Positions 1 through 31,277 of a stretch of 32,000 nt of DNA are shown piece after piece. The position numbers and the translations under genes are program-made. The stretch's first letter is position 1. Each line of letters opens with the position of its first letter. The notes beneath the pieces were generated by a model. The model had not been told where the DNA came from. It did not search any database and worked only from the letters and a program-made list of their open reading frames with translations. Source of the DNA: Nitrosopumilaceae archaeon (GTDB taxonomy: Archaea > Thermoproteota > Nitrososphaeria > Nitrososphaerales > Nitrosopumilaceae); NCBI GenBank assembly GCA_965200155.1, contig CBDATR010000031.1, positions 11,321 to 43,320 of the forward strand, given 5' to 3'.

Positions 1-84
1 TCACCTGTGTCTAAATTTACGCACAACTGATCGCGACAGTTAATGTAATTTGTGTATAAGATTCCGGAAGACGTGAACTCATAC
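1..84 (-). mobile_element. MITE-1 copy, cut by the window edge (orientation B)
   Basis: Matches the 92-bp consensus gtatgagttcacgtcttccggaatcttgtgcacaaatcacattaactgtcgcgatcagttgtgcgtaaatttagacacaggtgaactcatac in reverse complement. It ends with gtgaactcatac at 73-84. For all MITE-1 features, '+' means the consensus as written lies on the + strand. Confidence 0.9.
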
Positions 85-1033
85 GAATTAATACCAGCCA
101 GAATAGAGGAGACCCTTCATGTGATAGAAATGGCCACATGTATGTGCGGCAAAAAACAACTGGCTTCAGCAGCGGGCGTCCCAGAGAGTGGTGGTTTTGA
201 GATGTGGTGCCATCACTGCATTGCGTGCGGAAAAGATTCCAATAAAATGCGTACCTGTAATTTCGAGGGATCTCTTCGGCCTGAATATATCGGTGGGTGC
301 GGTAAACAACATAATTGCCAGGGCCGCCGATGCATGTGAATCATTTATGGAAACAATTTATGAGAATATAATAAAATCACCCAGCATTCATGTGGACGAA
401 ACTGGTATATCACTGGCGGGTAAGCGTGGCTGGATATGGGGGATGCGGGCCGAAGAGTGGATGATATACAAAAGTAGGAGTTCATATGTAGTGGACAAAT
501 ACCTGAACGGTCACAATGGAGCGATAGTAACGGACAGGTACGTTGTGTATCGCCGGTTTGATGACGGTGGGAAGCACCATCTGGGCGCATTTATTGCGCG
601 ATACCAGTATATTACATGCAGGATTCTATATTGATCCCGGTGCTCAGGACGCCCGGATCAAACTTGACAACGACCTGAAAGGATTGTTCCGGAGCGCACG
701 TGAATCGCTGCGGGCCGTCCGCGCAATTACGACACTCATTTGAGGCAGGAGCAGATGCATCAGTATTATGATGTTGATGATGCTGAACTACAAAAGAAGG
801 TAAAAGGATTGAATAAGGCCATACCAGGCATGTTCGTATTCCTAGAATATGACGGTGTGGAGCCGACCAACAATCCAGCGGAGCAGTGGAACCGGTTCTG
901 ATACGCAGTGGTATTCCGTAAGATTAGTGGCCAGATAAAGGGTGTAATGCGCCGCATGTCCACATGTGTTCAGAGATGGCGGGCTCAGGGCCTTTCTGTA
1001 ATGAACGAGGTTGCTGCCAGAATGCAATTATAA
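85..1033 (+). pseudogene. IS66-family transposase, multiply frameshifted
   Basis: Three overlapping ORFs (52-339, 188-634, 543-743) together rebuild one IS66-type sequence: HVDETGISLAGKRGWIWG, DRYVVYRRF, WAHLLRD. The C-terminal FLEYDGVEPTNNPAEQ...RKISGQIKG segment lies in yet another frame and contains an in-frame TGA. Confidence 0.8.
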
Positions 1034-1090
1034 TTAAAAAACTGGGATGCATTCTATCTTATTATGTGATCAAAACACGTGAACTCATAC
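85..1090 (+). mobile_element. IS66-family element, copy 1: right two-thirds only, N-terminal part missing beyond MITE-1
   Basis: About 90% nucleotide and protein identity to the 26288-27981 element from ELIPA(R/K)IEETLHVIEMA onward. Ends in the terminal repeat tgatcaaaacacgtgaactcatac at 1067-1090. It is inserted into the 3' tail of IS-A copy 1. Confidence 0.85.
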
Positions 1091-1118
1091 AAATGGTTAC
1101 CACAAAACCCATTAATTT

Positions 1119-1210
1119 GTATGAGTTCACCTATGTCTAAATTTACGCATAACTGATCGCGACAGTTAATGTGATTTGTGTACAAGATTCCGGAAGACAT
1201 GAACTCATAC
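1119..1210 (-). mobile_element. MITE-1 copy with 8-bp TSD attaattt
   Basis: Full 92-bp match. attaattt occurs at 1111-1118 and again at 1211-1218. This is the same site and relative orientation within the IS-A tail as the copy at 29492. Confidence 0.95.
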
Positions 1211-1264
1211 ATTAATTTAGTGGATTTTCTGATAAGTAATATTCGAATTATAATAACACGGAAA

Positions 1265-2062
1265 TTATGGACAGATATTTTTCAAGAATTTCTTGTACCT
1301 GGTATGCTTGTGTATAATGTGTAAATTATGCAACCCGGATACTACGAGATCTTCCCGGAATTCCTCACGACTACCATCATATACCTGACTTAATCTACGA
1401 TATACCTTTGGCATTCGAATTACATGCTCGATTAATATGCGCCTTTTTGATACATATTGGTTGTATTTCCTTTCAGTTTTAGTGAGTGATTCCCTACCCC
1501 TGTATGGAATTATGACCTTTGCGCCGGGTAGGAAGTCTTTCATACCCTGGTATCCTGCATCTGCTATTACTGTTATCTTCTCAGATGGCAGCGTGGTTGA
1601 TTCTTTTAGGGACTTGCCACCGAGGGGAATATCATTCTTGAATATACCATAATCGTGTCTTTTTCCCTCATATACTCCACTGACGTGAATTATCAGTCTT
1701 TTCTTGTTTGATGTTATCTGTACGTTATACGTGTGGGTTTTTTGTTTACCAGAGTACATTGCCTCCTGATTTTTTTCAGGACGTTGTACGCGTACATGTG
1801 TCCCGTCAGTCTTTATCTCCCCTCCGGCTCGACCGGGAACAATTTCCTTAAAGTCGGGTGTTGACTTGATTTGTGATATTGCTTTTGCAACGGTATCGGC
1901 CGTTGGAAGTATCTTGATCAGTCCCTGCTTTGTAAACTGGATGTAACGGCATATGTTTGACTGGTTTATCTTGAGTATTGTAGCAAGAAGCTCCTGCTTT
2001 GTGTTGCAGCGCAGGCGTATCAGTGTAACTAAGAGTACATGCCTAATGGGAAATTTGTTCAT
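1265..2062 (-). CDS. DDE_Tnp_4-type transposase of IS-A (265-aa ORF); the frame stays open upstream to about 2300 and the N-terminus is disrupted
   Basis: DGTHV..., GKRHDYGIF and VIADAGYQG blocks plus KRRILIEHV are typical of DDE_Tnp_4/Harbinger-like transposases. The upstream open frame is broken by a 19-bp tandem duplication at 2294-2333. Confidence 0.75.
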   Translation of the reverse strand: MNKFPIRHVLLVTLIRLRCNTKQELLATILKINQSNICRYIQFTKQGLIKILPTADTVAKAISQIKSTPDFKEIVPGRAGGEIKTDGTHVRVQRPEKNQEAMYSGKQKTHTYNVQITSNKKRLIIHVSGVYEGKRHDYGIFKNDIPLGGKSLKESTTLPSEKITVIADAGYQGMKDFLPGAKVIIPYRGRESLTKTERKYNQYVSKRRILIEHVIRMPKVYRRLSQVYDGSREEFREDLVVSGLHNLHIIHKHTRYKKFLKNICP

Positions 2063-2530
2063 GTGGCCACGATCATTTGTAAGTTCTAAGAATCGCCGTG
2101 CATCATCGCCTTCCAGGGACTCTACGTATTCTGTGAATGTGGTTAGTATCCATTTGAACTCTTCCGGGGTGCATCCGGTCAGGGAATGAAGCTGATCCTT
2201 GCGTTCTATGATGTCATCAAGATTTGAAACGAGGGCATTCTTTGTTTGAGCTTCAAGTTTGCCACGCAGGTTTGTTACTTCGGCCTCGGACTCGGTGTGT
2301 AGCCGGTTGTACTCGGTGTAGCCGGTTGTACTCTGTGACTAACTGCTCCTTGGTGAGTTCTGCTTTTAGCATATCTGGTATTACAAAATTAGGTCTTAAC
2401 TTTTCTGTTTCACACGAGTCTGTGTGGGAAAACCCATGATACTAGGTCAATTACTCGTATCTAACAACTTGGTTTAGACGTGCAGTGTGGGAGAAGTGAT
2501 TCTGCGCATACGGTCTAATGCACCATTTTT

Positions 2531-2622
2531 GTATGAGTTCACGTCTTCCGGAATCTTGTGCACAAATCACATTAACTGTCGCGATCAGTTGTGCGTAAAT
2601 TTAGACACAGGTGAACTCATAC
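2531..2622 (+). mobile_element. MITE-1 copy with 8-bp TSD ccattttt
   Basis: Full 92-bp match. ccattttt flanks both ends (2523-2530 and 2623-2630). Confidence 0.95.
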
Positions 2623-2736
2623 CCATTTTTTTCACTTGAATCCATGTACCTACTTCTTTACAGCACCACCTTATCATAGATGCGTAACGACAGAGCATGA
2701 TTGGATTGCGCCGGGATAGGGACTCGTATGTGGCTA

Positions 2737-4294: not shown

Positions 4295-4555
4295 TTGCTT
4301 GTGGAAACCTTTGATGTACTGGTAACAATAGAGAACAAGCCTTCCATAAGTGACCCCGAGGGACAGACCATTCTCAATGACCTTGTTCAGCGGGAGGGTA
4401 CCACTAACATTACACAGATACGGTGTTCCAAGAACCTCAAGTTTACCATATCTTCTGAGAGCCATGATGCCGCTATGGAAGAGGTGCGCCGCATATGTGA
4501 GGAAATGCGCATATACAACCCGCTGGTGAGTCATATACATGTGGTAAAAGTCTAG
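4295..4555 (+). CDS. purS: Phosphoribosylformylglycinamidine synthase subunit PurS
   Basis: 86 aa. V-I-NKPSISDPEGQTILNDL...IRCSKNLKF is the characteristic PurS pattern and size. Confidence 0.8.
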   Translation: MLVETFDVLVTIENKPSISDPEGQTILNDLVQREGTTNITQIRCSKNLKFTISSESHDAAMEEVRRICEEMRIYNPLVSHIHVVKV

Positions 4556-5592: not shown

Positions 5593-5959
5593 ATGGAAGA
5601 CCCAGAGGTTGAGATTCTGCGGGACAAGTTAGCCAAGGCCATGGCTGAATACAAAAGAAACATCAAGATCAATGAAGAGAAAGATGTGACTATCCGCAGA
5701 TTGTTTGAGTGTAGTCAAAGTATGTGTGGTAAAGACACTGTTAGAATGTATGAGTTCACCTGTGTCTAAATTTACGCATAACTGATCGCGACAGTTAATG
5801 TGATTTGTGCATAAGATTCCGGAAGACGTGAACTCATACGTTAGAATGTCTAAAAAACTTGTGCAGGATGTGTCACGTATTTAGATCCGACTACAAAAAA
5901 ACACAAAGCGTGTTGAAAGAATTTGAAGAAAAAACCCGTCGCATGCTCAGACTTATGAA
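5593..5959 (+). pseudogene. Degraded small coiled-coil ORF hit by MITE-1, a frameshift and an IS-A terminus
   Basis: MEDPEVEILRDKLAKAMAEYKRNIKINEEKD...GKDTVRM is interrupted at 5748 by MITE-1. The frame resumes after the TSD (SKKLVQDVSRI), then needs a frameshift (FRSDYKKTQSVLKEFEEKTRRMLRLMN), and ends at the IS-A terminus at 5960. Confidence 0.35.
5748..5839 (-). mobile_element. MITE-1 copy with 8-bp TSD gttagaat
   Basis: Full 92-bp match. gttagaat occurs at 5740-5747 and 5840-5847. Confidence 0.95.
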
Positions 5960-6122
5960 TAGACCTTATGCGCATGATTGACAGTAACAGCCCATGTTGC
6001 TTCAAACTGGGGTGTATTTTATTGCACACAATCAGTCAAGCATGAACAATGTGAATGGTACCTGCCAGCACTAACGTATGCCGTGATTACAAATGCCGTG
6101 CAGTGAGGCGACCGGATCTTGG
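5960..6122 (-). mobile_element. IS-A 3'-terminal fragment (about 163 bp)
   Basis: tagaccttatgcgcatgattgacagtaacagcccatgttgcttcaaactgggg... matches 25897-26060 and the reverse complement of 29290-29457 and 29640-29812. It is cut off at the MITE-2 copy beginning at 6124. Confidence 0.8.
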
Positions 6123-6123
6123 T

Positions 6124-6265
6124 GTAACAGTTTAGGTCACTCCTAGACAACCGCTCAAAATACACCGCGAACATATCCATTCTTGCCTTTTCTATCATAA
6201 TGTCTCACATATGCCCCCGTATTTATCGTCTAGATGTCTGATTTTTACGCGACCTAAACGGTTAC
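6124..6265 (+). mobile_element. MITE-2 copy (142 bp), followed by an extra right-end repeat at 6273-6289
   Basis: Termini are gtaacagtttaggtc ... gacctaaacggttac. The interior aligns with 13039-13164 and, in reverse complement, with 31052-31394. A second gtgacctaaacggttac lies at 6273-6289. Confidence 0.8.
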
Positions 6266-6475
6266 GTCGGAAGTGACCTAAACGGTTACGTTAGCCCTCA
6301 TACTGGTGGCAGCTCACACTACGCGCAAGCATTACGGTGCATCACAATATGCTTCAAACTAGGCACCATGAGTTCGTACAAGGAATATGAAATCATACGT
6401 ACTGCCCAGACATATTGTACTGAGAGAATGGTGTCATCCATAAGTCAGACTATACCGTCGGCAAAGGCTCAGCAT

Positions 6476-7634: not shown

Positions 7635-10130
7635 TCATATCAGGAAATATTCCGCATCCGGATGATGCAATATTATGGCAGCAGTAGACTGGTCCGGAAT
7701 TATCTGCCCTGATGCGGACAGCGTCATGCCGGCCTTGTCCGGATGCAGCAGCCTCCATACAAGCTCATGCTGCTCTATGTTTGGACAGCTGGGGTATCCC
7801 CAGCTGTATCTGAGACAACCGGTATCCAGTCCCAGCTCAGTGCGTATTCTTCTGTTATTCCACTCTGCCAGGGCCTCCACAAACTCCACGGCTAGGCCGT
7901 GCAGGTAGTATGCGTCCGTTATTCTGCCTTCCTCGTTCCATTTCGATATAATCTCCTCTGCCCTACTACCTGCACTTACTGCCTGAAATATCACCACGTC
8001 GCTATACTGTTCCTTTCCAAAGTAGTCTGCCATGCACAGTCTCCTAGCTTTCTGAGAGCGGGGAAATGCAAGTCTTGTGTCCCTGTCATCACTGCGGATT
8101 ACCAGCCAGTTGCCGCGACTATGGCACTGAAAGTACCCATACGTAACTGTGGGCGCAAAGAGGGACTCCGCTCTTATCTTTTCCTGCCATTGCAGGTACA
8201 GTCTCTGGTGCTCCTCTGCCTGTTCACGACCGGCCATGCCCCGCAGACCCCAGGACAACTTGAAGAGAGATCTCTGGTCCACCAGTGACCAGACCTGCTG
8301 ATAGTCTATCACATCCTGCAGTATGGTCCGTCCCATGAACGGGGGGCGGGGGGGCTTTACCGCTCTGACATCGCTCTTGGATACCTGGGCAGCCGGGGCA
8401 GCCCTAGTAGGCGGGACATACTTTTCCAGCTTGTTGCGCCACTCCTTTCTCAAAATATCCGGCTCGGACATGAGCCTGTCCATAACCTTCAGTCCGTCGA
8501 ACATGGTATTACAATAAAAGACGCCGGGATCATAGATACCGTTATCGGTGGATATGCGGTTCACGAAACTGGTGTTTATGGCCGCGCCGCCGCACAGTAT
8601 GGGTATGCTCAAATCGTTATCCCTGGCATGATCCACAAAGTGCTTCATCTCCCTGGACGTATTCACCAAGAGCGCCGAGAGTCCTACAGCATCTGCATCA
8701 ACCTCCTGTATCTTGTCCAGGAATCTCTGCATGGGCACCTGCTTGCCCAAGTCGTATACTGCATACCCATTGTTCTGGAATATTGTCTTTACAAGGTTCT
8801 TTCCTATGTCGTGCACATCGCCGTATACGGTACCCAGAACCAGCTTGCCCTTGCTGGCACCCTCCTTCTTTAGCAGATACTTTTCCAGCTCCGATACCGC
8901 ACTCTTCATACATTCCGCGGATTTCAGTACAAAGGGCAGTATTATCTCACCTGCGCCGAATCTGTCCCCTACCGTCTTCATGGCGGGGAGGAGTGACTCG
9001 TTCAATACCTGGATGGCTGCGGGATGCGTTTGCTGTAATGGCGCCTGTATTTGGCCGTCCTGAATTACTGTATCCCCGTCCATGTTGGCGTGTATGGCCT
9101 GCACTACCTCCCTCTCGATTCCCTCCAGTATGCGATTTACAATCATATAGTTGGCCTTCTTGGATGCGGGCCATGCGGGGTCGATTGTGGGCTTTGCTGC
9201 GCCAGGTCCCTCGGAGCTTAGTCCCTCAAATACGTCCAGGAGTTTGGCCAGGGCGTCCGGCCGCCTGTTCAGTACCAAATCATCGGCAGCACGTTTCTGC
9301 GTTAGCGGTATGTTGGCGTATGGTATGATATCTGTGGGGTTCACTATTACGCAGTCCAGGCCAGCCTGAACTGCATGATAAAAGAATACGGAGTTTATCA
9401 CTTTGCGGGGATAGGGATCCAGTCCGAAACTGACATTGCTCAGGCCCAGAACCGTATATGACTGGGGAAATCTCTCCTTGATGAGCCGTATTCCTTCTAT
9501 GGTCTGGTTGGCCGAGTCAAGAAACTCATCCTCGCCTGTAGCCAGGGTGAATGTGAGTGGATCAAATATGTACTGCCACTCTTGTAAATCATACTTTTTG
9601 CCTGTCTCTACCAGTAATTCTGCCGTACTCATCTTCTGCCTTGCGGTCTTGGTCATGCCCTGCGGTCCTATACACATGGCTATGGCGGGCAGTCCGTACT
9701 TTTTCATTACCGGGGCAATGCCGGAGAATCGGCTCCCGTCCCCCTCCAGATTAATCGAGTTTATGATGGGCTTGCCGGGTATATGACGTACCGCGGCCTC
9801 TATAACTACTGGATCTGTCGAGTCTATGACTAATGGTGTCTCCACCTCCAGGCTTAGCTGCTTTACCAGTTTCACCATGAACTCCTTCTCGTCTGCGCGC
9901 TCAGTAACGGCGACACACACATCAAGACAGTGGGCCCCGCCCTGGGCTTGGTCGCGGGCTATATCCACTAATCCCTCGTAATCATCTGCCAGAATGAGGC
10001 GCTTGGCCTTGCGGGAGCCTGCCGCATTTACCCGCTCACCTATTATGAGTGGGGCCGGTCTCTGGCGCAGCGATATGGTGCGCATAGCCGAGCTCACTAG
10101 AGGAATCATGGGTTGTGTGTGCATTACCAA
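7635..10130 (-). CDS. metH: Cobalamin-dependent methionine synthase MetH lacking the N-terminal homocysteine-binding domain
   Basis: 831 aa. Opens directly with the pterin-binding domain (LIIGERVNAAGSRK...). It has the B12-binding motif GDVHDIGKNLV and a C-terminal AdoMet-activation-like domain. Confidence 0.85.
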   Translation of the reverse strand: MVMHTQPMIPLVSSAMRTISLRQRPAPLIIGERVNAAGSRKAKRLILADDYEGLVDIARDQAQGGAHCLDVCVAVTERADEKEFMVKLVKQLSLEVETPLVIDSTDPVVIEAAVRHIPGKPIINSINLEGDGSRFSGIAPVMKKYGLPAIAMCIGPQGMTKTARQKMSTAELLVETGKKYDLQEWQYIFDPLTFTLATGEDEFLDSANQTIEGIRLIKERFPQSYTVLGLSNVSFGLDPYPRKVINSVFFYHAVQAGLDCVIVNPTDIIPYANIPLTQKRAADDLVLNRRPDALAKLLDVFEGLSSEGPGAAKPTIDPAWPASKKANYMIVNRILEGIEREVVQAIHANMDGDTVIQDGQIQAPLQQTHPAAIQVLNESLLPAMKTVGDRFGAGEIILPFVLKSAECMKSAVSELEKYLLKKEGASKGKLVLGTVYGDVHDIGKNLVKTIFQNNGYAVYDLGKQVPMQRFLDKIQEVDADAVGLSALLVNTSREMKHFVDHARDNDLSIPILCGGAAINTSFVNRISTDNGIYDPGVFYCNTMFDGLKVMDRLMSEPDILRKEWRNKLEKYVPPTRAAPAAQVSKSDVRAVKPPRPPFMGRTILQDVIDYQQVWSLVDQRSLFKLSWGLRGMAGREQAEEHQRLYLQWQEKIRAESLFAPTVTYGYFQCHSRGNWLVIRSDDRDTRLAFPRSQKARRLCMADYFGKEQYSDVVIFQAVSAGSRAEEIISKWNEEGRITDAYYLHGLAVEFVEALAEWNNRRIRTELGLDTGCLRYSWGYPSCPNIEQHELVWRLLHPDKAGMTLSASGQIIPDQSTAAIILHHPDAEYFLI

Positions 10131-11621: not shown

Positions 11622-12588
11622 TGTAATGTATGAAAAGTCGGTCCGCTAGTCATTGGTATCTCGCTCCATCCATTTTGCATCATTTGCCCTAATTGTCTGG
11701 GTCGCCTTTTTATTCCTGGAGTGGTGTCTCGCCGTTATCTATATCCCGTGAGAAGTGCAACCTTCTCTCATTGTAGTAGTCCACATAATCCCGGAGACTG
11801 TCATAATGCCAAATCTCGTCCTCAATCATTCCATGGAAGCGCTCCAGTTTGCCATTTGTCTGCGGGTGGTATGTCTGGAATTGATTAGTATGATGTCTTG
11901 ATCCAGCAGTTCTTCCTTGAATAGTGTTGGTTTCCAGCTTTTCTTGCCCTTTTATTGTCCTACGAAACACGCGCCGTTATCCGAGATGCAGGGGCGCCGA
12001 ATCGTTTCATTGCCAGTCTCAGTAATAGAGTGGCGTTCTCTGAGGTTGCATGCTCAAATAGTGCCGCTCCGACTATGCACCTGGATGCATCATCTATGAG
12101 ATTCAGTTCCCTGAAGCGCTCATCTTTCATGACATGCCAGTGCCACATTGCATTGGAATATTTACGCTCATAGCGTACCCACTCTGACTTTGCAGGTGAT
12201 GAGACTGTCGTACCGTTCTTTTTCATTATGCGATATACTGCGCGATATGATATATTGTAATTCTGTCTAAGCCTCTTTGCAATACGTACTACTCCGGCGG
12301 GATCCTTGCTGTATGCTTCAGTTACCATTCGTATCTGGGTGGCGGTGATTGGTATCATGGGCCTGCCCATCTTTACTCGAGTCGTTCCCGTCCTCTGGAA
12401 TCGGGCCCACAATCTTCGTACGTGTCTTGTTTCAGGTCTTGAGCTATTTTGGTGGTGGCAACGCCTCTTTTGCGTTGTCTTACTATTGATTCCTCTGTTA
12501 TTCTCTTTACCATAGCCTTTCGTGGCTTGTGCAATCTGAACTACTGTACGCCGGATCCTAAGCGGACTTACTTTTCGTACTATTGACA
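11622..12588 (-). mobile_element. IS481-like (rve integrase) element, copy A
   Basis: Imperfect inverted repeats of about 25 bp: tgtaatgtatgaaaagtcggtccgc at 11622 and tgtcaatagtacgaaaagtaagtccgc (reverse complement) at 12588. About 95% identical to 23314-24366. Confidence 0.8.
11710..12480 (-). pseudogene. IS481-like transposase (HTH + rve), frameshifted with an in-frame stop
   Basis: ORFs 11960-12628 and 11710-11970 carry WHWHVM...LIDDASRCIVG, then SDNGACFVGQ*KGKK and HPQTNGKLERFHGMIEDEIWHY...YYNERRLH in different frames. The 5' extension of the track ORF into 12596-12628 is MITE sequence. Confidence 0.75.
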
Positions 12589-12595: not shown

Positions 12596-12687
12596 GTATG
12601 AGTTCACGTCTTCCGGAATCTTGTGCACAAATCACATTAACTGTCGCGATCAGTTGTGCGTAAATTTAGACACAGGTGAACTCATAC
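12596..12687 (+). mobile_element. MITE-1 copy with 8-bp TSD aaggtaag
   Basis: Full 92-bp match. aaggtaag occurs at 12588-12595 and 12688-12695, directly abutting the IS481-like end. Confidence 0.95.
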
Positions 12688-18342: not shown

Positions 18343-19439
18343 GTGACTATGTCGCCCAACCTGTCCTGTGATGCCGCCTGCCTTATCTCCATGGCTATGC
18401 GGCGTCCCACTCCGAAGGTGCGGCCGTACTGATACTTTGTGTATGGGGTGGTGGTGGCCAGTATGGGATTGCCCGGTACCCGCAGGGACACATCATACAC
18501 TACCATCTCCAAATCCTTGGTTATCACGCTTTGCAGGGAGAACGGGCCTATGATTCCGGGATCAAAGTCATTCCTGGCGGCACTGGCAAACTTGTCTCCC
18601 ATGTCAAATATGGTCTCCAGTAATGACTCCCGTACGGACGCGGGGGTATGGCCCACCTCTATATTCTGCAGCTTTATGTCTATCTGGGCCTGCTGGGCCG
18701 CCGGTAATGCATTATAGTCCATTATGTTGGTCTGCAGCCGCCGCTCAATGCCCATAAAGTCTACCATTCCAGTAAGTGGCGAGACAAAATAGTTGAAATT
18801 CATGTACGTGCCAATTACCAACTCCTCAATGCTGGCCCGCTCCAGGCCTTCGCGGTCTATGGTTCCCTTATCAATGGCATCATGGGATTTTTTCGTGTAA
18901 TCCTGATATGATGATACGGTAAAGAAGGCCCGTTCCAGCTGGCGACTCTTCTCCTGCACCTTTACTATACATGGTCCGTCAATGTCCCTGGGATTCTCAT
19001 ATACCCGTGGCAGCCGCAGGCCTGCCCGCCTCAGCATGTAGTATTGCCCTTTTTCTTCTGAGCGCTCCTCGGCCCGGAAGAGGCGCCTATTTCCGAATAT
19101 GGGTACAGCCAGTTCATCTTCCAGTATGTCATATCCAAGGTATACTGCCAGTGACCTGTGGGGGACCAGTATGCACTGAGTGTCGGTCATGTATTTTTGC
19201 TCCTCCACTGTTGCCATGTCTTGGAATCGCTCAAGTACGCGTATCTCGTCTGCTATGCGGGAGAATCGCCGGTATGGTGTCTGGCGGCTCTTTTGGCAGT
19301 ATATTGAGGTCTGAAAATTCTCGTCCTTGGCGCCGTCCGCTATCTCTAAAGCCGAGTGGCTTCCCAGAACGGCTATCCGGGGATTGTCATATGGTGCTGC
19401 AATATTTGCCATTTCGTTGCGCCTTATCATTGGTATCAT
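18339..19439 (-). CDS. purP: 5-formaminoimidazole-4-carboxamide ribonucleotide (FAICAR) synthetase PurP
   Basis: 366 aa. IAVLGSHSALEIADGAKDENF...Y and an ATP-grasp C-terminal half. PurP is an archaeal-type purine enzyme. An alternative start, MANIAAPY, lies at 19409. Confidence 0.85.
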   Translation of the reverse strand: MIPMIRRNEMANIAAPYDNPRIAVLGSHSALEIADGAKDENFQTSIYCQKSRQTPYRRFSRIADEIRVLERFQDMATVEEQKYMTDTQCILVPHRSLAVYLGYDILEDELAVPIFGNRRLFRAEERSEEKGQYYMLRRAGLRLPRVYENPRDIDGPCIVKVQEKSRQLERAFFTVSSYQDYTKKSHDAIDKGTIDREGLERASIEELVIGTYMNFNYFVSPLTGMVDFMGIERRLQTNIMDYNALPAAQQAQIDIKLQNIEVGHTPASVRESLLETIFDMGDKFASAARNDFDPGIIGPFSLQSVITKDLEMVVYDVSLRVPGNPILATTTPYTKYQYGRTFGVGRRIAMEIRQAASQDRLGDIVT

Positions 19440-19489
19440 GTGTTATGATGGGGCATAATTTGATATTTTGCATGTGACTTGTTACTTGC

Positions 19490-19581
19490 GTATGAGTTCA
19501 CCTGTGTCTAAATTTACGCACAACTGATCGCGACAGTTAATGTGATTTGTGCACAAGATTCCGGAAGACGTGAACTCATAC
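19490..19581 (-). mobile_element. MITE-1 copy with 8-bp TSD ttacttgc
   Basis: Full 92-bp match. ttacttgc occurs at 19482-19489 and 19582-19589. It lies in the divergent intergenic region between purP and the 19636 ORF. Confidence 0.95.
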
Positions 19582-19635
19582 TTACTTGCTGTTATAATAC
19601 GTGAGTACTGGACATGTTCCTAGAGTCTATATATC

Positions 19636-21680: not shown

Positions 21681-21900
21681 GTATGAGTTCACGTGTTTTG
21701 ATCATATGATAAGATTGTAATTGACTTGGTACGACAATATTGCGCTTAAACACCAAGTTTGAAATAGAATCTAATGAGTAGGCGTACAACACAATAATAA
21801 ATGGGAGCAGGAAAACCGGCTGCTCCGGGACACCCTTGCGTCCACCAAGAGGAATCTTGCAGATGTGATGAAACGCGTGAAGGTATTGTAATGATATGGC
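21681..21900 (+). mobile_element. Terminal fragment of a diverged IS66-like element
   Basis: Starts with gtatgagttcacgtgttttgatca, as at the 27981 end. It then carries a diverged, frameshifted N-terminus (MSRR..., EQENRLLRDTLASTKRNLADVMKRVKVL versus ELENKLLQDTLAS...HYKERVRVLE). It is cut off at the MITE-1 copy at 21901. Confidence 0.7.
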
Positions 21901-21992
21901 GTATGAGTTCACCTGTGTCTAAATTTACGCATAACTGATCGCGACAGTTAATGTGATTTGTGCACAAGATTCCGGAAGACGTTAACTCATAC
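21901..21992 (-). mobile_element. MITE-1 copy without TSD (junction copy)
   Basis: 92-bp match with one terminal mismatch (gttaactcatac). The flanks gatatggc and agtggggt differ. It joins the IS66-like fragment to an IS630-like remnant. Confidence 0.9.
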
Positions 21993-22680
21993 AGTGGGGT
22001 TGCTCCAACAAAAAGTCATCCCCCATCCACATGAATTATGTATGAGTTCACCTGTGTCTAAATTTACGTATAACTGATCGCGACAGTTAATGTGATTTGT
22101 GCACAAGATTCCGGAAGACGTGAACTCATACTGAATTATGATTCAATGGAAGACGTGAAAAAATGGAGGCAAGAAATGTCAGAAAAGGTTGCACGTTACA
22201 TAAAGATGGATTATGCCATTGTTACCCAGGATGAATCCCATTTCAAGACCGAGAGATTATCTGCGCGATTCTGGGCCCCTGCAGGCAGGCGCGTACTCAT
22301 GGTATGAACCGGCAGGCGATACTGGTTCTCCATGGCCTGTACCATGATTAATGACGGTAGGGTATTCCTTGATGATTATACGGTCATAGATACAGAGAAT
22401 TTCCTGGATCACATGCATAACAAGGTGGGTAAGATGGTACTATTCGTGGACATGGCACACCTCAAGGAAGGCCAAGGAATTCTTTGCTGATCGGGACATA
22501 ATCGTAATAGAGTATCCGGTTGGACATCCATACCTGAATCCAGTCAAGGAATTCTGTAGCGTACTCAAGAGGGGGATGGATCACTCCCTACGATATTCGG
22601 ATATCAATTACCACAAGTAGGCAGTGTATGATTTCAAAGATGGCCATAAGCTCGATTATGATTTTAACAAATTCTGAAAC
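21993..22680 (+). pseudogene. IS630/Tc1-mariner-like DDE transposase remnant, frameshifted and split by MITE-1
   Basis: AIVTQDESHFKTERLSARFWAPAGRRV, then, in shifted frames, RYWFSMACTMINDGRVF, MVLFVDMA and IIVIEYPVGHPYLNPVKEF. These match the DE...W.P.G / D.A..H / P.SP.LNP.E pattern of IS630-type transposases. Confidence 0.6.
22040..22131 (-). mobile_element. MITE-1 copy with 8-bp TSD tgaattat
   Basis: Full 92-bp match. tgaattat occurs at 22032-22039 and 22132-22139, inside the IS630-like pseudogene. Confidence 0.95.
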
Positions 22681-22890: not shown

Positions 22891-23088
22891 GTGGATTTTT
22901 GTGCGTGATCGTTCTGGAGGCCCATACATGTACACAGTCATTATACGCCACTAAACTCGTCATGAAGTATTCCATGTCCATAAAGTATGGTAGGGTACAT
23001 TACTTACATCTGCTGATTTAGCCTGTCTGCCATCCCTGTTGTGATATTTTATGGAAAATCACTGCCAAGACTTATGGTGACTGCTATA
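22891..23088 (+). repeat. Unclassified 198-bp repeat (family 4), copy 1
   Basis: About 90% identical to the reverse complement of 31711-31907. The first roughly 30 nt (gtggatttttgtgcgtgatcgtt) also resemble 10960-10990. Confidence 0.7.
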
Positions 23089-23285: not shown

Positions 23286-23315
23286 GTATGAGTTCACGTC
23301 TTCCGGAATCTTGTG
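23286..23315 (+). mobile_element. MITE-1 left part (nt 1-28/30), split by the IS481-like insertion
   Basis: gtatgagttcacgtcttccggaatcttgtg, then the IS481-like terminus. The outer 8-mer cgctattt (23278-23285) recurs at 24444-24451 after the right part. Confidence 0.9.
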
Positions 23316-24366
23316 TCAATAGTACGAAAAGTAAGTCCGCTTAGGATCCGGCGTACAGTAGTTCAGATTGCACAAACCACGAAAGGCTATGGTAAAGAGA
23401 ATAACAGAGGAATCAATAGTAAGGCAGCGCAAAAGAGGCGTTGCCGCCACCAAAATGTATGAGTTCACGTCTTCCGGAATCTTATGCACAAATCACATTA
23501 ACTGTCGCGATCAGTTATGCGTAAATTTAGACACAGGTGAACTCATACACCAAAATAGCTCAAGACCTGAAACAAGACACGTACGAAGATTGTTAACCAG
23601 AGAACGGGAACGACTCGAGTAAATATGGGCAGGCCCATGATACCAATCACCGCCACCCAGATACGAATGGTAACTGAAGCATAAAGCAAGGACCCCGCCG
23701 GAGTAGTACGTATTGCAAAGAGGCTTAGACAGAATTACAATATATCGCGCAGTATATCGCATAATGAAAAAGAATGGTACGGCAGGCTCATCACCTGCAA
23801 AGTCAGAGTGGGTACGCTATGAGCGTAAATATTCCAATGCAATGTGGCACTGGCATGTCATGAAAGATGAGCGCTTCAGGGGACTGAATCTCATAGATGA
23901 TGTATCCAGGTGTATAGTCGGAGTGGCACTATTCTAGCATGCAACCTCAGAGAACGCCGCTCTATTACTGAGACTGGCAATGAAACGATTCGGTGCCCCT
24001 GCATCTAGGATAACGGCGCGTGTTTCGTAGGACAATAAAAGGGCAAGAAAAGCTGGAAACCCACACTATTCTAGGAAGAACTGGATCAAGACATCATACT
24101 AATCAATTCCAGACCATACTACCCGCAGACAAATGGCAAACTGGAGCGCTTCCATGGAATGATTGAGGACGAGATATGGCATTATGACAGTCTCCGGGAT
24201 TATGTAGACTACTACAATGAGAGAAGGTTGCACTTCTCACTGGATATAGATAACGGCGAAACACCACTCCAAGAATAAAAAGGCGACCCAGACAATTAGA
24301 GCAAATGATACAAAATGGGTGGAGCGGGATGCCAATGACTAGCGGACCGACTTTTCATACATTACA
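23314..24366 (+). mobile_element. IS481-like element copy B (pseudogenised), inserted into a MITE-1 and itself carrying a MITE-1
   Basis: Same termini as copy A. It is flanked by a 13-15 bp direct repeat of MITE-1 sequence (ttccggaatcttg[tg]). The rve reading frame contains stops and frameshifts and a MITE-1 at 23457. Confidence 0.85.
23457..23548 (+). mobile_element. MITE-1 copy with 8-bp TSD accaaaat
   Basis: Full 92-bp match. accaaaat occurs at 23449-23456 and 23549-23556. The equivalent site in copy A (about 12455) is uninterrupted. Confidence 0.95.
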
Positions 24367-24443
24367 TTCCGGAATCTTGTGCACAAATCACATTAACTGT
24401 CGCGATCAGTTGTGTGTAAATTTAGACACAGGTGAACTCATAC
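24367..24443 (+). mobile_element. MITE-1 right part (nt 16-92) of the copy split by IS481-like copy B
   Basis: ttccggaatcttgtgcacaaatc...gtgaactcatac, followed by cgctattt, which matches the left outer flank. Confidence 0.9.
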
Positions 24444-25785: not shown

Positions 25786-25896
25786 GCATTCGCTTATCGT
25801 GTACAAATCATACCACTGTTGCTAGTAGCAGGGTATATCTTTAGAGATTGGTGAATTTATACAAGACTTGAAGTATGAGTTTATGTCTACATAGAT

Positions 25897-26205
25897 TAGA
25901 CATTATGCGCATGATTGACAGTAACAGCCCATGTTGCTTCAAACTGGGGTGTATTTTATGACACACAATCAGTCAAGCATGAACAATGTGAGTGGCACCT
26001 GCCAGCACTAACGTATGCCATGATTGCAAATGTCGTATAGTGGGGTGACCGGATCTTGACGTATATCATGAGTGAGCTAAATGGTAACCACAAAACCCAT
26101 TAATTTAGTGGATTTTCTGATGAGTAATATTCGAATTATAATATCACGGAAATTATGGGTAGATATTTTTCAAAAATTTCTTGTACCTGTTATGCTTGTG
26201 CATAA
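25897..26205 (-). mobile_element. IS-A 3' end fragment (terminus plus the last roughly 15 codons of the transposase)
   Basis: tagacattatgcgcatgattgacag... through ...KKFLKNIYP* (reverse complement). It ends where the 5' terminus of IS-A copy 2 begins (tagaccgtatgcgcag at 26206). The MITE-1 target site is empty here. Confidence 0.75.
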
Positions 26206-26287
26206 TAGACCGTATGCGCAGAATCACTTCTCCCACCCTGCACCTCTAAACCAAGTTGTTAGATACGAACAATTGACCTAGTATCAT

Positions 26288-27981
26288 GTATGAGTTCACG
26301 TGTTTTGATCACATAATAAGATAGAATGCATCCCAGTTTTTTTTAATTATAACTGCATTCTGGCAGCAACCTCGTTCATAACAGAAAGGCCTTGAGCCCT
26401 CCATGTCTGAACACATGATACAAATGTAGACATGCGGCGCATTGCCCTTTCACCACCCTTTATCTGGCCACTAATCTTGCGGAATACCACTGCGTATCAG
26501 AACCGGTTCCACTGCTCCGCTGGATTGTTGGTGGGCTCTACACTGTCATATTCTAAGAATACGAACATGCCTGGTATGGCCTTATTCAATCCTTTTACCT
26601 TCTTTTGTAGTTCAGTATCATCAACATCACAGTACTGATGCATCTGCTCCTGTCTCAAATGAGTGTCGTAATTGCGCGGACGGCCCGCAGTGATTCAGGG
26701 ATTCCCGTGCGCTCCGGAACAATCCTTTCAGGTCGTTGTCAAGTTTGATCCGGGCGTCCTGAGCACCGGGATCAATATAGAATCCTGCATGTAATGCCTG
26801 GGTATCGCGCAATAAATGCGCCCAACACAACTGGTGCTTCCCACCGTCATCAAACCGGCGGTACACAACGTACCTGTCCGTTACTATCGCTCCCTGGTAA
26901 CCGTTCAGGTATTTGTTCACTACATTTGAACTCCTACTTTTGTCATATATGGACATCATCCACTCTTCGGCTCGCATCCCCCATACCCAGCCACGCCTAC
27001 CCGCCAGTGATATACCAGTTTCGTCCACATGAATGCTGGGTGATTTTATTATATTTTCATGAATTGTTTCCATAAATGATTCACATGCATCGGCGGCCCT
27101 GGCAATTATGTTGTTTACCGCACCCACAGATATATTCAGGCCGAAGAGATCCTTCGAAATTACAGGTATGCGTTTTATTGGAATCTTTTCTGCGCGTAAT
27201 GCAGTGATGGCACCGCATAATTGAACCCCAAAACTACCACTCTTTGGGACGCCAGCTGCTGGGGCCAGTTGTTTTTTGCCGCACTTGCATGCAGCCATTT
27301 CTATCACATGAAGGGTCTCCTCTATTTTGGCGGGTATTAATTCCGTTATGTGTCGTTGTTTCCAACCAATTTTTGTCATTATATTGCCGCACTCACATAT
27401 TGGAGCACACTCAAAGGTGTGGCGCATTACTCTGTCGGGGTTGTGGGAACGGGAAACCCCCTTGTGTCCCTTTTGCGCGCCAGCCTTTTTGGCTGATTTC
27501 GTACTGGCTTCTGTCTGTTGCTTATTATCTCCCTGTTTTCGCTTCTGCTCCTCCTGTTTTCGCTTCTTGTACTGGAGGGATTGAAGGGATGGTGGCGAGT
27601 GAGCATTCTCATAATATCTAAGTCGCGTTGTGAGTACCGCAATTTTCCTGTCTTTTTCTACTAATTCCTCTTTTAATTCACTTACATAATTTCTAATAAT
27701 TTGGAAATCTTGTATATGATTTCGTATTTCTTTTATGGTGTGTGACATATATGCTTCCAATACTCTCACACGTTCCTTGTAATGTGCAAGATCTTTCTTG
27801 TAATCCTCAATATCTTTCTTGATAGACGCAAGGGTATCCTGAAGAAGTTTATTTTCCAGTTCCAATTCCTTATAGGACCGGCGTCTTCTCATTAGATTCT
27901 TATTGCAAATTTGGTATTTAAGTAAAATATTGCCATACCAATCTATATCTTAGTGAATGATCAAAACACGTGAACTCATAC
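26288..27981 (-). mobile_element. IS66-family element copy 2, most complete (1694 bp)
   Basis: 24-bp inverted repeats gtatgagttcacgtgttttgatca at both ends. It contains a single transposase gene. Together with the partial repeat 27982-28485 it is flanked by an 8-bp TSD agtatcat (26280-26287 and 28486-28493). Confidence 0.85.
26627..27892 (-). CDS. IS66-family transposase (421-aa ORF); the C-terminal roughly 95 codons (26347-26626) are out of frame and contain an in-frame TGA, so it is probably non-functional
   Basis: N-terminal coiled coil, a Cys-rich block (CAPICECG...CKCG), HVDETGISLAGRRGWVWG and CWAHLLRD. The downstream FLEYDSVEPTNNPAEQWNRF*YAVVFRKISGQIKG segment lies in another frame. 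Confidence 0.8.
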   Translation of the reverse strand: MRRRRSYKELELENKLLQDTLASIKKDIEDYKKDLAHYKERVRVLEAYMSHTIKEIRNHIQDFQIIRNYVSELKEELVEKDRKIAVLTTRLRYYENAHSPPSLQSLQYKKRKQEEQKRKQGDNKQQTEASTKSAKKAGAQKGHKGVSRSHNPDRVMRHTFECAPICECGNIMTKIGWKQRHITELIPAKIEETLHVIEMAACKCGKKQLAPAAGVPKSGSFGVQLCGAITALRAEKIPIKRIPVISKDLFGLNISVGAVNNIIARAADACESFMETIHENIIKSPSIHVDETGISLAGRRGWVWGMRAEEWMMSIYDKSRSSNVVNKYLNGYQGAIVTDRYVVYRRFDDGGKHQLCWAHLLRDTQALHAGFYIDPGAQDARIKLDNDLKGLFRSARESLNHCGPSAQLRHSFETGADASVL

Positions 27982-28485
27982 CCCCCTTGTGTCCCTTTTG
28001 CGCGCCAGCCTTTTTGGCTGATTTCGTACTGGCTTCTGTCTGTTGCTTATTATCTCCCTGTTTTCGCTTCTGCTCCTCCTGTTTTCGCTTCTTGTACTGG
28101 AGGGATTGAAGGGATGGTGGCGAGTGAGCATTCTCATAATATCTAAGTCGCGTTGTGAGTACCGCAATTTTCCCCTGTTTTTCTTTTAGTTTCTCATTCA
28201 ATTCATTTACATAATACCTAATAATTTGGAAATCTTGTGTGAGATTTCGTATTTCTTTTGTGGTGTGTGACGTATGTGCTTCCAATACTCTCACACGTTC
28301 CTTGTAATGTGCAAGATCTTTCTCGGTAGACGCAAGGGTATCCTGAAGAAGTTTATTTTCCAGTTCCAATTCCTTATAGGACCGGCGTCTTCTCATTAGA
28401 TTCTTATTGCAAATTTGGTATTTAAGTAAAATATTGTCATACCAATCTATATCTTAGTGAATGATCAAAACACGTGAACTCATAC
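27982..28485 (-). mobile_element. Tandem partial duplicate of the IS66-like right end (equivalent to 27457-27981)
   Basis: It restarts at cccccttgtgtccc (27457 in the full copy) and ends with the same terminal repeat at 28462-28485. It encodes a 148-aa N-terminal coiled-coil fragment (ORF 27950-28396) with a 7-aa deletion. Confidence 0.8.
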
Positions 28486-28534
28486 AGTATCATGGGTTTT
28501 CCCACACAGACTCGTGTAAAACAGAAAAGTTAAG

Positions 28535-28626
28535 GTATGAGTTCACGTCTTCCGGAATCTTGTGCACAAATCACATTAACTGTCGCGATCAGTTGTGCGT
28601 AAATTTAGACACAGGTGAACTCATAC
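28535..28626 (+). mobile_element. MITE-1 copy without TSD, bridging a roughly 570-bp deletion in IS-A copy 2
   Basis: Full 92-bp match. The left flank aagttaag corresponds to about 2386 in copy 1 and the right flank agataaag to about 1818 in copy 1. Confidence 0.9.
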
Positions 28627-28628
28627 AG

Positions 28629-29189
28629 ATAAAGACTGACGGGACACATGTACGCGTACAACGTCCTGAAAAAAATCAGGAGGCAATGTACTCTGGTAAA
28701 CAAAAAACCCACACGTATAACGTACAGATAACATCAAACAAGAAAAGACTGATAATTCACGTAAGTGGAGTATATGAGGGAAAAAGACACGATTATGGCA
28801 TATTCAAGAATGATATTCCCCTTGGCGGCAAATGGGACAAGTCCCTAAAAGAATCAACCACGCCACCATCTGATAAGATAACAGTAATAGCAGATGCAGG
28901 ATACCAGGGTATGAAAGACTTCCTACCCGGCGCAAAGGTCATGATTCCATACAGGGGTAGGGAATCACTCACTAAAACTGAAAGGAAATACAACCAATAT
29001 GTATCAAAAAGGCGCATATTAATCGAGAATGTAATTCGAATGCTAAAGGTATATCGTAGATTAAGTCAGGTATATGATGGTAGTCGTGAGGAATTCCGGG
29101 AAGATCTCGTAGTATCTGGGTTGCATAATTTACACATTATGCACAAGCATACCAGGTACAAGAAATTCTTGAAAAATATCTGTCCATAA
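28629..29189 (+). pseudogene. IS-A DDE_Tnp_4 transposase, C-terminal 186 codons only
   Basis: IKTDGTHVRVQRPEKNQ... to ...KKFLKNICP* is about 95% identical to ORF 1265-2062. The N-terminal part of track ORF 28461-29189 is read-through of IS and MITE sequence. Confidence 0.8.
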
Positions 29190-29457
29190 TTTCCGTGTTA
29201 TTATAATTCGAATATTACTCATCAGAAAATCCACTAAATTAATGGGTTTTGTGGTAACCATTTAGCTCACTCATGATATACGTCATCAAGATCCGGTCAC
29301 CCCACTACATGACATTTGCAATCACGGCATACGTTAGTGCTGGCAGGTGCCATTAACATTGTTCATGCTTGACTGATTGTGTGCCATAAAATACACCCCA
29401 GTTTGAAGCAACATGGGCTATTCCTGTCAATCATGCGCATAAGGTCTATTATAATTC

Positions 29458-29812
29458 GGATATTACTCATCAGAAAATCCACTAAATTAATGTATGAGTT
29501 CACGTCTTCCGGAATCTTGTACACAAATCACATTAACTGTCGCGATCAGTTATGCGTAAATTTAGACATAGGTGAACTCATACAAATTAATGGGTTTTGT
29601 GGTAACCATTTAGCTTACTCATGATATACGTCACCAAGATCCGGTCGCCACACTACACGATATTTGCAATCACGGCATACGTTAGTGCTGGCAGATGCCA
29701 TTAACATTGGTTTGTTCATGCTTGACGGATTGTGTGCCATAAAATACACCCCAGTTTGAAGCAACCTAGGCTGTTACTGTCAATCATGCGCATAAGGTCT
29801 ATTGGCCCTAGT
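29458..29812 (+). mobile_element. Second tandem copy of the IS-A 3' tail, containing a MITE-1
   Basis: ttataattcggatattactcatcag ... catgcgcataaggtcta repeats 29204-29457. It differs by the 100-bp MITE-1 plus TSD insertion. Confidence 0.8.
29492..29583 (+). mobile_element. MITE-1 copy with 8-bp TSD aaattaat
   Basis: Full 92-bp match. aaattaat occurs at 29484-29491 and 29584-29591. The empty site ccactaaattaatgggtttt is visible at about 29231-29250. Confidence 0.95.
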
Positions 29813-29814
29813 CA

Positions 29815-30060
29815 GCTTTTTGTCTGTGCCCACAATCATGCCATTCCCCTTGTCTATGCCAATCTCTTCCGCGTCTGTATATTGTGGAGTAGTGCGGGGT
29901 TTGGTGCCCTTCCAGTAGTCCTGCAAGGAATCCGGATACCTGCCTGTATCTCATACTTAATGCCGTTCTCAGTGTCATCTAACATGTCCACGGTATACTG
30001 GTAGGGAGCACCCTCCTTGTTATGGTTGGCCTTTTCAATCCCACGCATGGTTGAAGCCAA
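29815..30060 (-). pseudogene. Frameshifted gene fragment, paralog of 24490-24845, abutting the IS-A terminus
   Basis: ORF 29854-30060 (MASTMRGIEKANHNKEGAPYQYTVDMLDDTENGIKYEIQ) continues in another frame as YPDSLQDYWKGTKPRTTPQYTDAEEIGIDKGNGMIVGTDKKLTRAN and runs into the IS-A end at 29812. Confidence 0.35.
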
Positions 30061-30171
30061 ATAGCCTCCCGCTGGACGTACTTGGCATTGTCGGTGAATA
30101 CCATCAAGTTTGTTTAAAAAATCTCAGATGTAATACTTGGATCCAAGTTAGTAATCACTACGACAGAATAA

Positions 30172-30263
30172 GTATGAGTTCACGTCTTCCGGAATCTTAT
30201 ACACAAATCACATTAACTGTCGCGATCAGTTATGCGTAAATTTAGACACAGGTGAACTCATAC
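30172..30263 (+). mobile_element. MITE-1 copy with 8-bp TSD cagaataa
   Basis: Full 92-bp match. cagaataa occurs at 30164-30171 and 30264-30271. Confidence 0.95.
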
Positions 30264-30439
30264 CAGAATAAACGAGAATACTCAAACCGTTTCTCACATA
30301 CATTTTTAATCTAACTTGTTTGGAGTTATGCAACTAACTAGTGTAATCTAAGTGGATATAAACTCGTACAATTCTACAACACATGCTGCTAATACTTGAA
30401 TTTTAAATTCGCGTATAAAATAAAAACACGCATGTAATG

Positions 30440-31030
30440 CTAGAACACAATATAGTCTAACGCCACAGCGTCGCTTATTAGTGATGTGTGCCTTGCTCCT
30501 ATTACGTAACCGTTTTTTATGTCAGAGGTAGGGACCCATCTATTCGTAGAGGTATAGTGGCGTTTCTCTGCTAACTCCCGCTCAATGGATTCTATATCAA
30601 ACTCGGCTTCTTCTACTTCTTGGGTAGCTATATGCCGTATTGTTACCAGTATCTTGGTTATCTTTATACGATCACCAAACCTCCATTGAACGGGAGGGTG
30701 TTCGTCTGAGACTTCAAGTACCTTGATCTTCATTTGTTTGGTACCTAGAGCATCACTACTAATCAACAACCTCTCGTCAACAAACTCCTCAAAGCTGGTT
30801 CGATGGCGTGCTGATCCTGTGCTGGATACTGTTTCTAGAATGCTTTGCACGTCGTTACGGGGTGTATCTTCAATTATATCTGGCTCCTCGTAAACTTTGT
30901 CCTCTATAGGTTCATCCTCTTGCGCGGCGTCTTCTTCCTCTACTACGTCTGGATCTTGCGGAATGTCATCATCTTTTTTATTTCTGATTTTTTCCCATAT
31001 ACCCATACCAAAATATAGTCTGTGCGACAT
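30440..31030 (-). CDS. Hypothetical protein with an acidic N-terminal region
   Basis: 196-aa ORF. It has a D/E-rich low-complexity segment (DPDVVEEEDAAQEDEPIEDKVYEEPDIIED), then a structured-looking C-terminal half. I recognise no family. The start may be the internal MGIWEK. Confidence 0.5.
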   Translation of the reverse strand: MSHRLYFGMGIWEKIRNKKDDDIPQDPDVVEEEDAAQEDEPIEDKVYEEPDIIEDTPRNDVQSILETVSSTGSARHRTSFEEFVDERLLISSDALGTKQMKIKVLEVSDEHPPVQWRFGDRIKITKILVTIRHIATQEVEEAEFDIESIERELAEKRHYTSTNRWVPTSDIKNGYVIGARHTSLISDAVALDYIVF

Positions 31031-31073
31031 AAAAATATAGCCACTCCAGTCGTAACCGTTTAGGTAGCGTAAA

Positions 31074-31165
31074 GTATGAGTTCACGTCTTCCGGAATCTT
31101 ATGCACAAATCACATTAACTGTCGCGATCAGTTATGCGTAAATTTAGACACAGGTGAACTCATAC
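31074..31165 (+). mobile_element. MITE-1 copy with 8-bp TSD agcgtaaa
   Basis: Full 92-bp match. agcgtaaa occurs at 31066-31073 and 31166-31173. Confidence 0.95.
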
Positions 31166-31185
31166 AGCGTAAAAGCTCAGACATC

Positions 31186-31277
31186 GTATGAGTTCACGTC
31201 TTCCGGAATCTTATGCACAAATCACATTAACTGTCGCGATCAGTTATGCGTAAATTTAGACACAGGTGAACTCATAC
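31186..31277 (+). mobile_element. MITE-1 copy with 8-bp TSD cagacatc
   Basis: Full 92-bp match. cagacatc occurs at 31178-31185 and 31278-31285, only 20 bp from the previous copy. Confidence 0.95.

Follow-up and report, generated by a model that had tools for sequence, protein, structure and literature searches.

Architecture of the window and of the MITE-1 family

The DNA analysed here, a 32-kb stretch of the archaeal contig CBDATR010000031.1 (the window; 32,000 nucleotides at full length), carries a block of housekeeping genes and four families of insertion sequences (ISs) nested in each other, and intra-window repeats account for 32% of its length. Scattered through it is MITE-1, a 92-bp repeat that an earlier note on this DNA had taken for a miniature inverted-repeat transposable element (MITE). 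That reading stands, and to it we add what the note had missed, an autonomous element of the IS66 family at 26288-27981 that is the presumed parent of MITE-1 (Table 1). In the housekeeping block (2.9-21.3 kb) all MITE-1 copies are intergenic, and elsewhere they sit within other transposons.

When the window was searched with the 92-mer, 12 sites with three or fewer mismatches were found, against none in 100 shuffles. A looser search gave the copy at 1119-1210, which has four mismatches to the 92-mer, and a low-stringency BLAST of the window added nothing beyond a truncated copy (1-84) and a copy lying in two halves (23286-23315 and 24367-24443). The total is therefore 15 copies, where chance would give 0. 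Thirteen of them are intact, the window boundary truncates another and an IS interrupts the last. Both the number and the positions agree with the earlier note, as do two further points it had made, the perfect terminal inverted repeats (TIRs) and the small number of substitutions between copies. Specifically, the perfect 12-bp TIR, GTATGAGTTCAC...GTGAACTCATAC, is present in nearly all copies. The terminus GTATGAGTTCAC occurs 35 times in the window, compared with 0.16 occurrences expected, and these resolve into 29 termini of the 15 MITE-1 copies and six ends of the larger IS66-like element (at 1079, 21681, 26288, 27970, 28474 and 31908).

Mean pairwise identity among the copies is 97.6%, and nearly all of the differences are transitions. 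Four copies (2531, 12596, 19490 and 28535) are identical to the consensus, while another four (5748, 23457, 31074 and 31186) share one sequence, with A in place of G at positions 28 and 61 (the A28/A61 subfamily). These two groups of four identical copies point to recent bursts of MITE-1 in which two or more variants acted as masters. The only open frame in MITE-1 has 30 codons and no family match. The element folds as a long hairpin (DNA, -16.3 kcal/mol, z = -3.3; RNA, -27.8 kcal/mol), which is a general property of MITEs. Length variants also exist: one of 99 bp, with an internal palindrome and the duplication TAATAAGT, lies at 7365-7463 of L021 (ERZ25068043), another assembly in ENA, and further such forms were seen among predicted peptides.

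Table 1 MITE-1 copies and IS66-like elements in the window (TSD, target-site duplication)
Feature	Position	Strand	Remarks
MITE-1, cut by the window edge, inside an IS66-like copy	1..84	-	right flank GAATTAAT
Partial IS66-like copy	85..1090	+	90% identical to 26287-27343; interrupted by the MITE-1 at 1-84
MITE-1	1119..1210	-	TSD ATTAATTT; the same insertion event as 29492-29583
MITE-1, consensus	2531..2622	+	TSD CCATTTTT; downstream of tatA; occupied in other samples too
MITE-1, A28/A61 subfamily	5748..5839	-	TSD GTTAGAAT; intergenic
MITE-1, consensus	12596..12687	+	TSD AAGGTAAG; at the extreme end of the IS481-like copy 11622-12588
MITE-1, consensus	19490..19581	-	TSD TTACTTGC; divergent intergenic region, 50 bp upstream of purP
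MITE-1, no TSD	21901..21992	-	adjoins the diverged IS66-like end fragment 21681-21900
MITE-1	22040..22131	-	TSD TGAATTAT
MITE-1, split (23286-23315 and 24367-24443)	23286..24443	+	TSD CGCTATTT; IS481-like element 23316-24366 between the halves
MITE-1	23457..23548	+	TSD ACCAAAAT; inside the IS481-like element
IS66-family element, full length, presumed parent	26288..27981	-	1,694 bp; 24-bp perfect TIR
Partial tandem repeat of the IS (its right-hand ~504-525 bp)	27982..28485	-	gapped alignment to 27457-27981
MITE-1, consensus, no TSD	28535..28626	+	right flank AGATAAAG continues an IS5-like element
MITE-1	29492..29583	+	TSD AAATTAAT; the same event as 1119
MITE-1	30172..30263	+	TSD CAGAATAA
MITE-1	31074..31165	+	TSD AGCGTAAA; unfilled paralogue 6244-6251
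MITE-1	31186..31277	+	TSD CAGACATC; 20 bp from the preceding copy; unfilled paralogue 6233-6240
IS66-like copy end, cut by the window edge	31908..32000	+	terminus match

Target-site duplications and unfilled sites record transposition

Exact 8-bp direct repeats surround 11 of the intact copies and the split copy (12 of 15), the same number as had been reported before. The earlier note had also stated that the duplications differ at every site. They are indeed site-specific, but the duplication at 1119, ATTAATTT, is the reverse complement of the one at 29492, AAATTAAT, and the window holds 11 distinct duplications whose sequences vary from site to site. The two copies concerned occupy the same position in a larger repeat (1091-1255 matches 29611-29447 at 98%) and have three diagnostic substitutions in common. 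They are one MITE-1 insertion that was later passively duplicated within the larger repeat, which leaves 14 independent insertion events in the window, not 15. The target sites are A+T-rich, as previously described (72% A+T in the duplicated 8-mers versus 53% in the window; resampling p ~6e-4), and no target consensus is evident across the 11 duplication sites. We also considered a preference for insertion into the parent element and rejected it, given that IS66-like DNA amounts to 11% of the window and received two of the 14 events, so that there is no enrichment.

Since the window is full of transposon paralogues, unfilled versions of several target sites were available among them. The copy at 23457-23548 has ATTTTGGT on both sides, and the IS481-like paralogue has it once, at 12446-12453. 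The insertion represented by 29492 and 1119 is matched by unfilled sites at 29236-29243 and 26099-26106, and the adjacent insertions at 31074 and 31186 by an 82% paralogue at 6233-6251, in which the site for 31074 reads CGCGTAAA on the other strand of 6244-6251. The edge-cut copy at 1-84 stands beside GAATTAAT, which is present once, on the other strand, in the intact IS (27336-27343). For a copy in L021 (519-610, duplication CCCTGCTT) the empty site lies in the window, at 1923-1930. The IS itself provides another such pair, as the IS66-like composite at 26288-28485 is flanked by AGTATCAT and its unfilled counterpart is at 2436-2443. These five MITE-1 pairs, together with the IS pair, are direct evidence of transposition. 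They also dispose of the concern that the flanking 8-mers might belong to the repeat, since the sites differ and the unfilled paralogues carry the target once.

An IS66-family element with the same ends as MITE-1

The 1,694-bp IS at 26288-27981 ends in a perfect 24-bp inverted repeat, GTATGAGTTCACGTGTTTTGATCA, the first 12-14 bp of which are the termini of MITE-1 (GTATGAGTTCAC[GT]). Its transposase is encoded by a single open reading frame (ORF) on the minus strand, running from 27892 down to 26350, with no room for further genes and no tnpA or tnpB. This ORF matches the IS66 DDE domain PF03050 at 2e-28, with a weak zf-IS66 match in addition; PF03050 scores of the IS66-like transposases range from 100 to 137 bits (cut-off 23.1), and the ORF at 188-634 in the partial IS66-like copy matches the same domain.

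The single ORF, the length of ~1.7 kb, the ends starting with GTA and the 8-bp duplications fit the ISBst12 group of the IS66 family, and ISBst12 and ISDge4 share all of these traits with our element as well as the IS66 DDE domain. The differences lie in its thaumarchaeal host, in ends that read GTATGAG, and in the distance to the nearest proteins from outside the lineage, which are 29-34% identical; among 5.8 billion proteins no transposase relative above 34% identity was found outside its own cluster. The canonical IS66 end is GTAAGCG. Elements of the ISBst12 group have been described as having a single ORF and 8-bp direct repeats, and ISDge4 as moving by copy-and-paste (PMC12898284).

The closest database protein to the window transposase is a 508-aa protein (P0001), 94% identical, relative to which the window sequence changes frame near residue 411 (window ~26639-26643, residues ~411-413); we read this as a probable deletion of ~8 nt. 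Three residues, D283, D332 and E455, are invariant in an alignment of 20 transposase sequences. As the frameshift precedes the catalytic E455, the 421-aa window ORF is without the catalytic glutamate and is defective. Its score against NCBIfam NF033517 is 169 bits, below the cut-off of 180, compared with 220-227 bits for the intact transposases of 508-515 aa, which are 94% identical. These intact copies are located on other contigs, which appear to belong to the same assembly as the window. The window itself is part of the 63,340-bp contig in that set, on which P0135 has its coding sequence precisely at 28396-27950 and the PurP protein P0139 is a 100% match.

The frameshift, which splits the transposase into products of 421 and 96 aa, recurs in the same assembly in P0128 (421 aa) and in P0121, P0129 and P0132 (96 aa each). 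Either the defective IS variant has itself been propagated or the copies have been homogenised. In the window the full element is directly followed by a tandem partial copy (27982-28485), 92% identical to 27457-27981, and the 8-bp duplication AGTATCAT (26280-26287 and 28486-28493) flanks the whole composite. A further ENA assembly, L022 (ERZ26869290), has a comparable additional right end in tandem, 39 bp long, at 4507-4545. Such right ends could result from aberrant (one-ended?) transposition, or from insertion at the end of an IS followed by deletion.

MITE-1 is dispersed through the genome of one lineage

The 30-codon frame of MITE-1 encodes YEFTSSGILCTNHINCRDQLCVNLDTGELI, which as a protein probe matched 26 small predicted proteins with distinct flanks, from NCBI and ENA only, on nine contigs of 540, 513, 239, 190, 130, 63, 35, 25 and 11 kb. 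One of them, P0273, is the window copy at 1119, and the other 25 are MITE-containing ORFs from outside the window, spread over eight or more further contigs of the assembly to which the window belongs. Since only one of the 15 window copies is in this list, the true total for the genome is probably much larger. L021 and L022 contain three and two MITE-1 copies, respectively, one of those in L022 lying inside a deleted IS66-like copy; both assemblies show new duplications, with two in L021. The family is thus not restricted to this region, as the earlier note had allowed it might be.

In the GTDB representative genomes the 20-mer core of MITE-1 gave no loci among the matches listed, and the relatives recovered by a transposase-based scan were all from unrelated bacteria, at 24-31% identity, which indicates that the source genome and its close kin are absent from that collection. 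No match was found in JGI metagenome contigs for either the 60-nt pattern or the 20-nt core, and none for MITE-1 in IMG/VR. The family thus occurs throughout the genome and is specific to a single lineage.

Judging by how little the copies have diverged, this spread was recent, as had been suggested before. The suggestion that mobilisation is still going on did not fare as well. Short-read Logan contigs of other runs end 26-28 nt inside MITE-1 at 2531 and 19490, meaning that both insertions are present in those samples too, and the IS in the window is defective.

The IS66-family transposase as the probable driver of MITE-1

MITE-1 and the IS have their ends and their duplication length in common, and on this the case for the IS66-like transposase as the driver of MITE-1 chiefly rests. 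Around these shared features stand filled and unfilled sites for both elements, an enzyme family of D-D-E type, intact enzymes elsewhere and dispersal of the repeat through the genome. MITE-1 is thus very probably a non-coding, non-autonomous DNA transposon of 92 bp, mobilised in trans by a DDE transposase that is encoded in the same genome by a single-ORF IS of the IS66 family (ISBst12-group type). The transposase would recognise the outer 12-14 bp (GTATGAGTTCAC[GT]) common to both elements; a staggered cut of 8 bp in the target, with a preference for A+T-rich sequence, would then receive the element ends, and repair of the gaps would yield the 8-bp duplication. That it is this enzyme which moves MITE-1 we infer from sequence comparison, and the mode of movement would be copy-and-paste.

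Several observations weigh against this assignment. Only 12-14 bp of the 24-bp TIR of the IS are common with MITE-1, the ends diverge beyond ~14 bp, and the interiors compare with a score of 19 against 19.1 +/- 2.5 for shuffles; an origin of MITE-1 as an internal-deletion derivative of the IS was rejected, the similarity of the interiors being no better than that of shuffled sequence. The IS copy in the window, with its frameshift, cannot supply the enzyme, and an IS elsewhere in the genome with ends closer to those of MITE-1 might be the driver instead. Neither a transposition event nor a population polymorphism was seen, both sites checked in other samples (2531 and 19490) being occupied. 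Finally, the window copies at 21901 and 28535 and one copy in L022 are without a duplication, for which deletion or recombination after insertion is the best explanation. The copy at 28535 has a right flank that continues an IS5-like element exactly as in the paralogue near 1818 and a left flank that is unrelated, which indicates deletion or recombination between MITE copies.

The short match at the ends and the unrelated interior would also suit a true MITE moved by a different transposase, whether IS5-like (DDE_Tnp_4), IS481-like, IS630-like or from an IS elsewhere in the genome, and the window does contain several further IS families. We regard this as unlikely, because the GTATGAGTTCAC terminus is found in the window only on MITE-1 or IS66-like DNA (35 of 35) and the IS66-like element gives the same 8-bp duplication. 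By contrast, the IS481-like element has different ends (TGTAATGTATG...CTATTGACA), and its copy at 23316-24366, which landed in a MITE-1 copy, is flanked by a 15-bp duplication of its own, TTCCGGAATCTTGTG. It is barely conceivable that the copies are immobile, having arisen by segmental duplication or as structured repeats like repetitive extragenic palindromes (REP-like) spread by recombination. The 1119/29492 pair was indeed copied passively in a larger repeat, and the long hairpin would fit. Against this reading speak the exact 8-bp duplications with their eleven different sequences, the flanks unique to each of 25 further loci on other contigs and the lack of flanking homology around most copies, and the clean filled/unfilled pairs already refute it.

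A further alternative accepts that MITE-1 is mobile and holds that it has also been co-opted, as a mobile promoter, terminator hairpin or source of small RNA for neighbours such as purP. The stable hairpin and the A+T-rich motif TAAATTTA in MITE-1 are compatible with such a role, as is the copy at 19490, which lies in a divergent promoter region 50 bp upstream of purP and is present in every sample seen. This appears very improbable to us, considering that only four copies are near housekeeping genes, without consistent orientation or position, and that the majority lie within other transposons. Moreover, Rfam and tRNA scans of the window gave no matches, and no compensatory change is seen at the variant positions of the predicted hairpin, in which the G-to-A variants at 28 and 61 do not pair with one another. 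Movement by the IS66-family transposase remains the most probable explanation of MITE-1.

Host lineage and comparison with known elements

Evidence on the host comes from PurP (18339-19439; identical at 100% to P0139), whose best named relatives are in Nitrosopumilaceae/Nitrosopumilus, at 66-69% identity, with other relatives at 78-82%. The window also encodes an archaeal-type TatC. On this protein evidence the host is a Nitrosopumilaceae-like thaumarchaeon (Nitrososphaeria), an archaeon of the ammonia-oxidising type, with no close named relative. Archaea of the Nitrosopumilaceae type are usually regarded as streamlined, with few mobile elements, and the nesting of four IS families and a MITE in a sequence of which a third is repeat points to a lineage under relaxed selection or with a recent change of lifestyle.

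MITE-1 is an ordinary kind of element, a MITE, and its mechanism is standard. With classical MITEs (Correia in Neisseria, SM1-SM4 in Sulfolobus, those of Haloquadratum and Halobacterium) it shares its shortness, the absence of coding capacity, TIRs, target-site duplications, near-identical copies, the ability to form a hairpin, a mostly intergenic or transposon-nested location, and ends in common with a resident IS. It differs from them in that the driver would be an IS66-family enzyme, in that only the termini are common with the parent, and in its size, as 92 bp is at the small end of the range. MITEs as a class are familiar from bacteria and some archaea, including Sulfolobus, Halobacterium, Haloquadratum and others (PMC10969869). 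The survey of thaumarchaeal mobile elements by Krupovic et al. (2019) covered 20 genomes and reported 244 ISs of 13 families, with bursts such as the 83 ISs of Ca. Nitrososphaera gargensis and the 43 IS5 copies of Ca. Nitrosocosmicus oleophilus (PMC6563490). Our window agrees with that survey in showing bacterial-type ISs in a thaumarchaeal genome. The main text of the survey contains neither 'MITE' nor 'IS66' (PMC6563490), and the window stands apart in its 32% of repeat and its four nested IS families. Neither an IS66-derived MITE nor one from ammonia-oxidising archaea turned up in our literature searches, which were limited in extent.

We also put forward a tentative proposal, which in all its parts together we would sooner doubt than expect to hold: that no MITE family before MITE-1 had been linked to the ISBst12 group of IS66 or described in ammonia-oxidising Thaumarchaeota, that MITE-1 has more than 100 copies in a genome of ~2 Mb, and that its lineage is in the middle of a transposon burst. 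Were there well over a hundred copies, the load would rival or exceed the highest MITE density reported for archaea, 146 per Mb (PMC11602168), and a normally streamlined Nitrosopumilaceae-like lineage would be undergoing a transposon burst of the sort seen in recently host-restricted organisms.

The main interest of MITE-1 lies in the genome dynamics of this archaeal lineage and in its use as a natural substrate for studies of IS66-type transposition. Transposition in the IS66 family is poorly understood, and MITE-1 and its presumed parent form a clean natural test pair for it, in which 12-14 terminal bp may suffice for recognition. There is also a practical side, in that MITE-1 repeats break short-read assemblies at their edges and create spurious small ORFs, so that masking is needed in annotation.

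Neighbouring genes and spurious ORFs

The divergently oriented purP and a 114-aa ORF are separated by 174 bp (19440-19613), and MITE-1 with its duplication takes up 100 bp of this interval. As the insertion at 19490 is in every sample seen, the native promoters must tolerate or use it.

The earlier note had placed some copies inside small ORFs, which is probably an artefact of the 30-codon open frame of MITE-1. The same frame is behind a 242-aa chimeric ORF at 28461-29189, which passes from an IS66-like flank through MITE-1 (YEFTSSGILCTNHINCRDQLCVNLDTGELI) into the DDE domain of a truncated IS5-like transposase and is an annotation trap.

Elsewhere in the housekeeping block, the minus strand at 7635-10130 encodes a MetH-like protein of 831 aa that matches positions 326-1181 of TIGR02082; the N-terminal homocysteine-binding module is therefore absent, which points to a split or truncated MetH. 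At 1284-10677 of L021, MITE-1 copies flank genes for a DUF1156 methyltransferase-like protein (891 aa), a DUF499 protein and a SNF2/DEAD helicase of 1,036 aa, a cluster that looks like a defence island.

Other repeats and insertion sequences

The IS481-like element, of ~0.95 kb, has two copies (11622-12588 and 23316-24366) that are 94-97% identical and give weak IS481, IS3 and HTH matches. An IS5-like element with DDE_Tnp_4 and HTH_Tnp_4 domains is likewise present twice, at 1091-2523 and at 26198-29450, and the second copy is broken up by a deletion as well as by a MITE and the IS66-like composite. A segment from the end of the IS5-like element, 170-310 bp long, recurs singly and in tandem at 5953-6124, 25894-26206, 29199-29450 and 29447-29803, and may be the 'other MITE' of the earlier note.

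A repeat of ~135 bp is found at 6132-6266, 13100-13164 and 31051-31385 with 79-82% identity, and one of its copies received two MITE-1 insertions 20 bp apart. The two members of an inverted repeat pair of 198 bp, 93% identical, are at 22891-23088 and 31710-31907. ORF fragments at 22092-22490 (such as ...FWAPAGRRVLMV) have no Pfam match and look like a decayed transposase of the IS630/Tc1 type; elsewhere in the genome, a MITE-1 variant (P0276) is inserted in another copy of this IS630/Tc1-like element.

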